From a virus (Duplodnaviria > Heunggongvirae > Uroviricota > Caudoviricetes): a DNA stretch of 64,000 nucleotides. The translations under genes and the position numbers were made by a program. The notes under the pieces are model-generated. The model was not told the origin of the DNA. It saw only the letters and a list, made by a program, of their open reading frames with translations, and made no database searches. The stretch lies in the IMG/VR virus record IMGVR_UViG_3300024268_000040. The stretch is one strand, 5' to 3'. Positions 14,534 to 17,614 of this stretch are shown piece after piece (position 1 is the stretch's first letter; each line of letters opens with the position of its first letter).

Positions 14534-14866
14534 ATGTCAGATTATGGCGTAAAAGACATAAAGACGCTTGAAGGCATCGAAGCGATTAGACTTCGTCCTG
14601 GTATGATAGATTATTGTATTGAGCATCAGTATGAACTTCCACGAAGATTACAATATTATGCTAAATATTATCCAAATGTATCATTTTCCCAAGCATTGGA
14701 GTTATATTCTTTGTCTGTTCGAGAGGTTATTGTTCTTTTCCAAGCCAAACATTTATTTGACGCTTCTTTAAGTTTTGGTCGTGGTCTTATTTATGCAAGA
14801 GACAAATGGCTTGAAAAAATGTCCCAAGCAGAAAAAATTGCGGCCGCATACCTACTGGCGGAATAA
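14534..14866 (+). CDS. Small protein whose first ~25 aa duplicate the N-terminal arm of the topoisomerase B subunit.
   Basis: [25 protein letters not shown] matches [25 protein letters not shown] at the start of the 15695 gene. The DNA differs almost entirely at synonymous sites. The rest is unrelated sequence. Confidence 0.5.
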   Translation: [110 protein letters not shown]

Positions 14867-14963
14867 GGGTCAGTTTCACCGATTTCGTCCCGGCATTGGT
14901 CCGGAATGGAAAATTGACTTTTATCAATTTTTATGATATAATAGAAAGGTAAGGTGAATTTCT

Positions 14964-15716
14964 ATGTATCAAATTTATAAAATAACTAATCAAAAAAATG
15001 GAATGGTCTATATTGGTTCATCAATTGAAGTTGAACGCAGATGGAGACAACATAAAGAAGCTTCCATTAATGAGAAAGACCATCATTATAATTATCCTTT
15101 AATGATTGCTTTTAGAGAGTTCGGTATTGATAATTTTACTTTTGAGATTATTGAAACTCTACCTTCTTGGGAAGAGATGATTGAAGCCGAACATAATTGG
15201 ATTGTAAAAGAAGATTGTGTAAAACCAAAAGGCTACAATCAGACTGATAAAACTGATAGCCCAATGTTTGATCCCTCTATCGCAAAAAAAATGAGTGATA
15301 CTAAACGAGTTAAATATGGTAAAAAAGTTTGTGAAATCTCTTCTAATAAAGAAATTGTCGGAGCATGGAATTCGTTAGCAGAAGCTGGTGAAAACACGGG
15401 TCTTGACCGATTTAAGATTAGTGATGTGTGCAATGGCCGACGTTTAACCACCGGAGGTAGAGTGTTTAGATTTACTGATGAAGAAGGTAATTTAATTGAA
15501 CCTGAAATAAAAGTAAATAAAACTCAAACCAGTAGAATTACAAAATCCAGTAGGAAAGTTGTAAAAATGAATGATAATAATGAAGAATTACAAGTTTATG
15601 ATAGCGTAGCACGTGCGGCCGCAGATAATAATTGCGACGCAAGTGCCATATCAAAAGTTTGTAACGGTTCAAGAAATAAATGTGGAGGTTTTAAATGGAA
15701 ATACCTAACAATGTAA
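14964..15716 (+). CDS. GIY-YIG homing endonuclease, free-standing, standard alphabet (no TAG).
   Basis: IYKITNQKNGMVYIGSS...RRWRQH motif set, with a C-terminal DNA-binding region. Inserted between the gyrB-arm ORF and the full topoisomerase gene. Confidence 0.85.
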   Translation: MYQIYKITNQKNGMVYIGSSIEVERRWRQHKEASINEKDHHYNYPLMIAFREFGIDNFTFEIIETLPSWEEMIEAEHNWIVKEDCVKPKGYNQTDKTDSPMFDPSIAKKMSDTKRVKYGKKVCEISSNKEIVGAWNSLAEAGENTGLDRFKISDVCNGRRLTTGGRVFRFTDEEGNLIEPEIKVNKTQTSRITKSSRKVVKMNDNNEELQVYDSVARAAADNNCDASAISKVCNGSRNKCGGFKWKYLTM

Positions 15717-17614
15717 ATAATGCTGAATATGGCGTTAATCAAATTAAAACCTTGGAAGGAATTGAAGCAATTCGTCTTCGTGCGGGAATGTATATCGGAA
15801 GTGTTGGACCCGAAGGTGTCAGACACATCACACTCGAAATCATTTCTAATGCAGTTGATGAATATTTAAATGGACATTGTACTCATTGCACCATTGACGT
15901 TGGAGAAGATGGCGTAATTTGTATTCATGACAATGGTCGTGGCGTTCCTTTTGGCAAGGCTGAGGATGGTAGTGAAGTTTTAGTTAATGTTTATACCAAG
16001 CTTCATACTGGTGCAAAGTTTGATAGCTCTGGCAAGACTGGCTATAATACCTCCGGTGGTATGAATGGTGTCGGTGCTAAAGCAACAAATGCATTGTCTG
16101 AAATTTTTACTGTTGTATCTTATCGTGACGGTAAAAAGGCTACAGCCGAATTTGCTCGTGGCGAGTTATTAAAATATAATGAAGTACAAGATCCCAATCA
16201 AAAAGTTACCGGCACAGCTATTATGTTTAAACCAGATGCCACCATTTTTAAAGAAGGCATTATGCTTGAATACGCTCCTCTCAAGAAGCAAATCCAAGAG
16301 TTAGCTTACTTATCTCCTGGCTTAGTATTTGAACTAAACTATAAAGACACTAAAGAAACTATTACTTCTCAAAACGGTATTCGTGATTACATTAATGACC
16401 TAAACGATGGTAAAAATAAAGTAACTTCTGTATTCTATACTGAAAGTATGGAAGATAGAATTGGTGTAAAAATTGCTATGCAATATAATGATACTTATAC
16501 TGATATGTATCGCTTATATACCAACTCCATTCCCAATAGTGCGGGAACCCACTTGACCGGTTTCAGAACCGCGCTCACTTCTACAATCAACGAGTATGCT
16601 CGTGAAAAAAAGCTACTCAAAGAAAAAGATGCCAATATTACTGGTGAAGAATTGAAGGAAGGTTTAGTTCTTGTCCTGTCCTTCATTATGCCTGACCCTG
16701 TTTTCTCCGGTCAGACAAAGGATGTTCTCTCCAGTAGTGAGGCTCGTACCGCAGTACAACGATTGACCGCAAGAGAAATTAAAGTTTGGCTTGATGCAAA
16801 TCCAAAAGATGCCAAAGCAATCGTAGATAAGGCTCTTCTGGCTCGTGCGGCCCGTGAAAAGGCAAAGAAAGCCAAGGAAACCGTGCGGAAGGTCGATAAT
16901 AAGCGGCGTGTACTCTTACCTGATGTATTGAGTGATGCCAACTCTAAGGATCGTCACCTCTGTGAAGTATTCCTCGTTGAGGGTAAATCCGCTGCCGGTA
17001 CTACAATCGAAGCTCGTGACCGCAATACCCAGGCTGTTTTCCAGCTTCGTGGTAAGATTTTGAATGTTTTGAAAACTGATTTACATAAGGCTCTTCAGAA
17101 TAAGGAAATTAGCGGTATGATTGACGCCTTCGGTTTGGAAGTTAAAGATGGTAAGGTTATCGTTGATGAATCTAAGCTGAGATATGGCAAGATTATTATC
17201 ACCGCGGATGCTGATGTCGACGGAAGCCACATTCGAGTCCTGTTCCTTACATTCATTTGGAAATTCTGTCCCGAGCTTATTGAAAAGGGATATATTTATG
17301 CAGCAGTACCTCCTCTATATAAAGCAACATATGGTACCAATATCAAGTATCTCGTAAATGATGCTGCGCTCAATGAATTTAGAGCTGGTATGAAGAGATC
17401 TTTTGAGCTGGGTCGTATGAAAGGCTTAGGTGAGATGGACCCAGATGAAATGGCTGAAACTGTTATGAATGCTAAGACTCGTATTCTTAAACAGATTACT
17501 ATGGAAGACGCAGCAGCAGTCGCGCAGACATTTATGAGTTTAATGGGAGAGTCGGTTACGCCCAGAAAGAAGTTCATTGAAGAGAACTCTTGGAGGGCTA
17601 ATATTGATGTCTGA
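15695..17614 (+). CDS. Type IIA DNA topoisomerase ATPase/TOPRIM subunit (GyrB/ParE/T4 gp39-like), 639 aa, TAG-free.
   Basis: GHKL motifs ([18 protein letters not shown].NGVG). TOPRIM motifs ([19 protein letters not shown]). Confidence 0.9.
   Translation: [639 protein letters not shown]

Follow-up and report, generated by a model that had tools for sequence, protein, structure and literature searches.

Homing endonuclease genes are known to lodge inside essential coding sequences without harm in two ways: within introns or inteins, and within split genes that are held together by tails derived from the element. The topoB gene in a 64,000-nucleotide stretch of a Caudoviricetes genome (IMG/VR record IMGVR_UViG_3300024268_000040; the whole stretch is called the window) very probably illustrates a third way, the provision of a spare copy of the gene start: a GIY-YIG homing cassette appears to have inserted at codon 24/25 of topoB and to have brought a replacement start with it, leaving upstream of the endonuclease gene a small open reading frame (ORF) composed of the displaced native start and a cassette protein. 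Among phages the closest precedent is the MobA/gene 60 cassette, for which the reference is reportedly Bonocora et al. (2011); conceptually, mobile endonuclease ORFs of fungal mitochondria come nearest. The MobA/gene 60 cassette, of approximately 1.1 kb, has inserted repeatedly at one site in the topoisomerase II large-subunit gene of T4-like phages, and carries a diverged region with 67-81% DNA identity to the homologous host sequence (Manning & Atkins, 10.1101/2022.08.31.505936). As in the window, a phage type II topoisomerase gene harbours the cassette, the upstream fragment has gained an in-frame C-terminal extension, an out-of-frame overlap with the downstream ORF accompanies a new start and a host-homologous N-terminal extension, and the endonuclease is progressively lost while its flanks persist. 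The two elements differ in that MobA is an HNH endonuclease whereas that of the window is of the GIY-YIG type, and in that the gene invaded here encodes a GyrB-like subunit of an unrelated phage group, with codon 24/25 as the site. In the MobA/gene 60 system host sequence has been deleted, the gene is truly split and a bypass element is present, none of which applies here; instead, the homologous region in the window duplicates the whole upstream fragment, so that the downstream ORF lacks nothing, and the slot of the upstream extension is variable, with at least six unrelated small ORFs.

Mobile endonuclease ORFs with duplicated gene ends are found in fungal mitochondria, in atp6 of Allomyces macrogynus and in atp6, atp9, cox2 and nad3 of Glomus (PMC3630166). 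There, as here, the endonuclease ORF is accompanied by foreign sequence for one end of a gene, which takes the place of the native end, and the native end persists alongside; the native copy resembles that of sister taxa, and the incoming one is divergent, mainly at synonymous sites. The phage arrangement is a mirror image, 5' and N-terminal instead of 3' and C-terminal, and its displaced end keeps a promoter and start that are apparently re-used to express another gene. MobE in nrdA of Aeromonas phage Aeh1 (PMC3045599) is likewise a free-standing endonuclease gene inside a coding sequence, with element-derived tails translated onto the fragments, but both nrdA fragments are needed and reassemble, whereas the upstream fragment in the window is redundant. 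The group I intron-encoded I-TevI has a homologous catalytic domain and a target in a conserved motif of an essential gene, but in the window no ribozyme was detected with Rfam and the downstream gene needs no splicing. Homing of the 'intronless' kind is a concept that is said to go back to Belle et al. (2002). The Seg GIY-YIG endonucleases of T4 (PMC2988022) share an I-TevI-like domain joined to a C-terminal DNA-binding module, a sporadic distribution and co-conversion of flanking sequence, but seg genes are normally intergenic, whereas the gene in the window lies within another gene and compensates with a spare start. No description of this element was found in the searchable literature, which is not proof that none exists. 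The cassette is a variant of known mobile-element tricks, and is not evidence of a new topoisomerase regulator.

The small ORF (14534..14866, + strand; 110 amino acids) begins with 24 codons that represent the displaced native 5' end of topoB (copy 1; 14534..14605, +), and continues in frame through 86 codons and a TAA stop that encode a cassette-borne small protein (tail A; 14606..14866, +). Its residues 2-24 are identical to residues 10-32 of the topoB product at 18 of 23 positions (E=2e-9 in a single BLASTP comparison). A duplicated N-terminus of 25 amino acids had been claimed in the preliminary description of this DNA; the duplication is real, but its extent is reduced to about 22-23 residues, the copies being offset by 8. 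At the DNA level 48 of 66 nucleotides are identical between 14540..14605 and 15725..15790, with 10 synonymous and 4 non-synonymous codon differences, and the similarity stops exactly at the methionine of the conserved motif RPGM/YIGS. The duplication takes the form of direct repeats separated by 1.2 kb. The duplicated stretch was correctly recognized as the N-terminal arm of GyrB (plus the first helix), as topoB aligns to ParE/GyrB fragments from their residue 8; in GyrB, this arm wraps the ATP site of the partner protomer. The exact 110-residue sequence is present on at least 22 contigs of public assemblies, some of them in the 0.2-1 Mb class, which indicates that the phage and its cassette are common in sequenced samples.

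Uninterrupted relatives define the boundaries of the insertion. Near-identity and protein searches of annotated phage records returned no close relative (best match 42% amino acid identity), but IMG/VR contains about 80 related topoB loci with 61-88% amino acid identity, on contigs of approximately 130-200 kb, and most of these are uninterrupted: only three or four of the roughly 80 carry the cassette. In uninterrupted topoB genes of the window's own lineage (13 IMG/VR loci), the first 24 residues are the first 24 of the small ORF, with 100% amino acid identity. BLASTN comparison with one such locus, L001, gives two blocks, 14452-14605 matching L001 5915-6069 (88%) and 15725-17610 matching L001 6004-7889 (80%), so that L001 6004-6069 is matched twice by the window and no host sequence has been deleted. 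The first block is 86-90% identical to the front and start of topoB in L001, L003, L008 and L093; homology to uninterrupted topoB genes ends at 14605 and resumes at 15725. The two-block match identifies copy 1, along with the promoter and ribosome-binding site in front of it, as the native 5' end, and places the start of the insertion at 14606. The insertion point falls between topoB codons 24 and 25 (72 bases into the gene) in the sequence coding for RPGM/YIGS, and is surrounded in uninterrupted sites of the L001 type by CGTCCTGGTATG on the left and TATATCGG on the right. The left junction is always within a few nucleotides of GGTAT(G), with a variation of only about 4-7 nucleotides across contigs, and upstream homology is shared with L001 over only about 150 nucleotides. 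The native topoB promoter (14462..14490, +; TTGATT-17-TATAAT with TG, scoring 10/12 in a promoter scan) is predicted to drive the small chimeric ORF now. The earlier suggestion of a homing scar essentially fits copy 1, a native gene start stranded by insertion.

The downstream topoB (15695..17614, +; 639 amino acids) encodes a GyrB/ParE-like subunit that is chimeric but, as had been supposed, complete: it has its own ribosome-binding site (GGAGG, 15684-15688) and ATG (15695), overlapping the 3' end of the endonuclease gene by 22 nucleotides, and all four Pfam domains (HATPase_c, DNA_gyraseB, Toprim and DNA_gyraseB_C). Among 43-kDa fragments of ParE and GyrB, 4URL aligns from its residue 8 with residues 11-398 (E=3e-81), and the alignment takes in the pattern Y..I..LEG.EA.R.R.GMYIGS. 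The replacement translation start (15684..15790, +), conserved in cassettes, consists of GGAGG, ATG, an 11-residue variable extension and the second copy of the arm (copy 2; 15725-15790). In a comparison by 90-nucleotide segments, the first segment, which covers copy 2, is 99% identical to the cassette-type locus L007 and only 72% identical to the native-type L001, whereas beyond it L001 is the best match; at the start of the L007 contig is the 3' part of this endonuclease gene. At sites that differ between L007 and L001, the window agrees with L007 at 24 of 24 positions in 15722-15808, and mostly with L001 from 15826 onward, placing the right boundary of cassette DNA and the co-converted tract in 15791..15826 (+), with the switch between 15808 and 15826. 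Beyond the start, L106 compared with its native relative L020 has 389 native-type and 30 cassette-type sites, and L038 compared with L035 has 492 and 23, respectively. This switch from cassette to native sequence in three lineages is, on the evidence of these alignments, the signature of homing with a short co-conversion tract, and it puts the right end of the cassette about 18-36 nucleotides past the junction. A practical consequence for annotation and phylogeny is that the first 115 nucleotides or so of the window's topoB are foreign, and that the upstream "GyrB-like" ORF is a chimera, not a paralogue.

Both copies were initially held to be under protein-level selection because they differ mainly at synonymous sites. 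This argument fails: copy 1 is native (88% nucleotide identity to L001) and copy 2 is of the cassette type (99% to L007), so their differences arose in two functional orthologues and are older than the juxtaposition, and therefore say nothing about later selection on copy 1. Selection on copy 2 can be assessed among cassettes instead. Across nine of them the proportion of synonymous differences (pS) is 0.63 and that of non-synonymous differences (pN) is 0.089, from which it follows that copy 2 is translated; in all three cassette subtypes the replacement start has its own GGAGG, with ATG or TTG as the start codon.

The inserted cassette is approximately 1.2 kb long (14606..15808, +, with a right end at about 15810, from the comparison with uninterrupted relatives), and contains an intact GIY-YIG homing endonuclease gene (14964..15716, +; 250 amino acids) with Pfam, PDB and PHROG matches. 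The N-terminal GIY-YIG domain (PF01541, E=1.6e-13, above the Pfam cutoff) is related to the catalytic domain of I-TevI (PDB 1MK0/1LN0; E=6.8e-9 for 1MK0), the C-terminal DNA-binding module (residues 208-244) is of the I-HmuI NUMOD-like family PF22083 (E=3.8e-12), and the PHROG match is to homing endonucleases (E=1.7e-30). Homologues of 248-250 amino acids are present in other cassettes. Sporadic presence, a fixed site and co-conversion of flanks were all observed, which places the gene among I-TevI/Seg-like GIY-YIG homing endonucleases. It is preceded in all cassettes examined by a promoter (14914..14942, +; TTGACT-17-TATAAT with TG, 11/12 in the promoter scan). Upstream of this promoter is a segment rich in guanine plus cytosine (GC; 14840..14896, +, 57% GC), which contains GCGGCCGC, ends in TTCGTCCCGGCAT (14884-14896) and is conserved at the DNA level in L093, L107 and L119 whatever the reading frame. 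TTCGTCCCGGCAT repeats the end of copy 1 (TTCGTCCTGGTAT) and is a third, decayed partial copy of the junction (TTCGTCCnGGnAT). The 13-mer occurs in the window only at 14592-14604 and 14884-14896, against an expectation of 0.01, and convincing similarity between 14840-14896 and the whole arm is confined to the last 13-22 nucleotides or so. The variable tail module is thus bracketed by a 13-nucleotide direct repeat, with the third copy just upstream of the endonuclease promoter, an arrangement that suggests nested or serial insertions at one site.

The sequence GCGGCCGC, a NotI site, occurs six times in the window (6462, 14840, 15615, 35407, 37559 and 62233), which has 38.5% GC and in which roughly 0.1-0.2 occurrences would be expected. 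It encodes Ala-Ala-Ala in an open frame at four of the sites, and such a frame is also available at 37559 and 62233. Two of the sites bracket the endonuclease gene, which the relative L113 has lost by deletion between them.

The arrangement of copy 1, followed by a tail, the promoter, the GIY-YIG gene and copy 2, is found on more than 12 independent contigs from several phage lineages (L038, L093 plus L002, L104-L107, L115, L117, L121, L122, L124, L126, L127 and L133) and also on contigs 100% identical to the window. The upstream neighbours of the cassette loci vary (DUF5662, FTHFS, small ORFs, a divergent structural gene), and their native arms are lineage-specific. Three subtypes of endonuclease plus copy 2, with topoB starts MEIPNNVNN.., MGISVNNN.. 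and (L)SEEILLKK.., are shuffled against the tail types, and the same type of copy 2 is found behind different native types of copy 1. A scan of metagenomes with a 19-nucleotide cassette motif returned 15 loci, six of which (L120, L125 and L128-L131) were discarded as chance matches in unrelated DNA. In L107, a second GIY-YIG endonuclease gene (7087..7803) is located directly downstream of topoB, which is thus bracketed by endonuclease genes.

A homing mechanism can be proposed for the cassette. The free-standing GIY-YIG endonuclease would cut cassette-free alleles near the RPGM/YIGS-coding sequence at codon 24/25, and repair would copy the cassette, with copy 1 and the promoter region as the left arm and the body of topoB as the right arm; the left arm being shared over only about 150 nucleotides, the element would be independent of the gene upstream. 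The changes in copy 2 (CCT GGT to GCG GGA, and GGT TCA to GGA AGT) may protect it from cutting and make deletion between the repeats less frequent. A comparison of the putatively immune copy 2 sites with naive sites gave no single discriminating base, the naive sites varying synonymously. The ribosome-binding site, start codon and diverged first 32 codons or so provided by the cassette keep the downstream gene whole without an intron or intein, and translation of topoB may be coupled to that of the endonuclease gene. Stranded upstream are the native promoter, the ribosome-binding site and the ATG with 24 codons, which read in frame into the tail gene. The arm in the small ORF would be a by-product of the insertion point, used to start translation and as the left arm in homing. 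Each homing event would regenerate copy 1 from the recipient's own intact gene, and many arms would look pristine for this reason.

The selected part of the small ORF is, to judge from substitution patterns, tail A, a helical protein of 86 amino acids under purifying selection. A protein search with the 110-residue sequence found about 30 full-length homologues (68-97% identity) and arm-less versions of approximately 87-92 amino acids; all 21 of the 21 invariant columns of the homologue alignment fall in the tail, and the pairwise ratio of non-synonymous to synonymous substitution rates (dN/dS) of tail A is 0.10-0.28. The possibility raised at the outset that the sequence beyond the arm is a degraded gyrB remnant is ruled out, as what follows residue 24 is a distinct conserved small protein. 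The consensus arm is kept in only 11 of 29 type-A fusions, and in about 13-18 of the 29 it is mutated, internally deleted or truncated (at least 13 with in-frame deletions, truncations or radical changes), whereas full-length topoB genes have only conservative changes in the arm region. Since the arm deletions stay in frame, translation of the tail from the stranded start is indicated. The tail survives loss of the endonuclease gene: L113 and L114, in which the gene has been deleted between two GCnGCnGCA repeats, have a tail with a 14-residue stump of the arm, followed by copy 2. In L111 and L112 an arm-less or arm-reduced tail A is directly upstream of topoB, without an endonuclease gene. Another arm-less or arm-reduced tail A is inside an unrelated small-gene cluster (L110). 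The context of the topoB start in L111 is the 3' end of the endonuclease gene of L038 and L107, which favours, but does not prove, that the free-standing tail in L111 is a derivative that lost the endonuclease rather than the ancestral state.

Because the insertion point is shared, the arm is found fused to at least six unrelated tails at the same junction. The types in other cassettes include B (EEYIRLFNYL...), C (Cys-rich), D (zinc-ribbon-like; one cluster has 218 members), E, F and G, and in L038, L093 and L122 there are very short read-throughs in place of a tail. Neither Pfam nor PHROGs had a match for tails B, C or G; for D and F, zinc-ribbon similarities below threshold were the only hits. 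Additional ORFs are located between the stranded topoB start and the cassette promoter in L119 (93..1806), one of 377 amino acids with repeated Cys-rich motifs and a possible nuclease-like C-terminus, and another a 68-residue HNH_3-like fragment, implying that the slot accumulates other mobile genes. The cargo comprises helical, zinc-ribbon-like and winged-helix-like small proteins that are swapped between cassettes. A tentative and rather doubtful extension of the homing explanation is that the stranded gene start, with its promoter, ribosome-binding site, ATG and 24 codons, has become a platform from which the small proteins of a hypervariable, swappable cargo slot are expressed as fusions to the arm. 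If so, the cargo may play a role in competition between phages, by shielding the target site, helping the endonuclease, or being guided by the arm to the GyrB-type ATPase of a competitor or host. Irrespective of this extension, the interval that separates the stranded start from the endonuclease gene may be a hunting ground for small accessory proteins that hitch-hike with homing endonucleases in gut phages.

It is improbable that the arm-bearing small protein is a modulator of the phage topoisomerase or host gyrase, the arm docking on the dimer interface of the GHKL ATPase and the tail adding an activity. Several observations would suit such a function: the window and 29 of the 32 fusions to other tail types have an intact arm, every long-tail variant is an in-frame fusion, and tail A adjoins topoB even where the endonuclease gene is missing. 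However, the arm is fully explained by the insertion point and by the copying of the recipient's 5' end at each homing event; in many type-A homologues it is cut to 8-14 amino acids, internally deleted or decayed while the 86-residue tail is conserved, and arm-less tail homologues exist. In a structure model the arm region has a predicted local distance difference test (pLDDT) score of 43-54, which is of low confidence. The free-standing arm as a gyrase modulator, proposed in the preliminary description, is therefore unsupported, and the small ORF is not kept in close relatives, a point chosen beforehand as decisive: the closest uninterrupted relatives lack it.

A group I intron carrying an endonuclease gene, with an exon 1 at 14534..~14599 spliced to the body of topoB, is very unlikely. 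In its favour, introns typically occupy highly conserved motifs such as the one at this site, many organellar introns likewise have an ORF that continues the frame of the preceding exon, and joining the U after CGUCCU (~14599) to the position after the G of CGUGCG (~15784) would preserve the reading frame. On the other hand, Rfam detected no family at E<=10 in 14000-16500, a weak negative as Rfam is insensitive to introns with large ORF inserts, and returned only two sub-threshold CRISPR-repeat look-alikes over the cassette; an interruption elsewhere in topoB of L043 is also silent in Rfam, and hence there was no positive control for the intron search. Copy 2 comes with a conserved ribosome-binding site and start of its own, and purifying selection acts on it as coding sequence; what lies between copy 1 and the endonuclease gene encodes protein (dN/dS 0.1-0.3) and is of at least six unrelated types, with no conserved ribozyme core; and the conserved non-coding DNA amounts to only about 60-125 nucleotides, with the promoter inside. 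The initial judgement that copy 1 is not exon 1 of an ordinary intron holds, as the downstream topoB has its own start and its arm is selected as coding sequence.

A local tandem duplication of the 5' end of topoB in this genome, followed by divergence under selection, would yield direct repeats 1.2 kb apart with mostly synonymous differences, as observed, but is scarcely credible: copy 1 groups with the native genes of its own lineage, copy 2 is 99% identical to cassettes of other lineages and 72% identical to the native type, and the same copy 2 types are behind different native copy 1 types. An assembly chimera of two co-occurring phage strains, conceivable in metagenome-derived data in which repeats can be mis-joined, has a negligible probability given contigs from other assemblies that are 100% identical over 11534-17700 and the recurrence of the architecture on more than 12 independent contigs that derive from various samples and assemblers.

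Several points weigh against the insertion of a homing cassette with a spare gene start as a full account of the locus. The cleavage of cassette-free alleles, homing repair and expression of the small ORF are inferred from sequence comparison. The arm in the window is still 100% identical to the native consensus, and a function of the arm in this particular phage is possible. Among the called ORFs resembling the query, every long tail continues the frame of copy 1, which may be partly a matter of ascertainment or may mean that the fusion itself is selected. Tail A has no match in Pfam or PHROGs, and the account extends neither to its function nor to the source of the cassette or of the third, decayed copy (14884-14896).

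Many relatives have an interruption of topoB at a different site: after ...GRMKG, at the conserved GLGEM motif, the gene is broken by approximately 950 nucleotides (for example, L043 7700..8950). Matches in many IMG/VR loci end at residue 577/583, and the C-terminal end is then encoded by a GTG-started ORF of 70 amino acids. Either the gene is truly split or an intron has gone undetected; Rfam found nothing over the interruption in L043.

Upstream of the native topoB promoter, on the opposite strand, a gene of 691 amino acids (12254..14329, -) is called on a contig 100% identical to the window; it has 11 in-frame TAG codons in the standard code and ends in TAA. TAG therefore appears to be a sense codon for this phage, at least in this structural-looking gene. 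No in-frame TAG is present in the small ORF, the endonuclease gene, topoB or the GyrA-like gene, all of which terminate at TAA or TGA. ARAGORN predicts no tRNA in the window. Two pairs of long ORFs overlap on opposite strands, 650..2308 (-) with 722..2242 (+), of 552 and 506 amino acids, and 27612..28553 (+) with 27654..28586 (-), of 313 and 310 amino acids, respectively.

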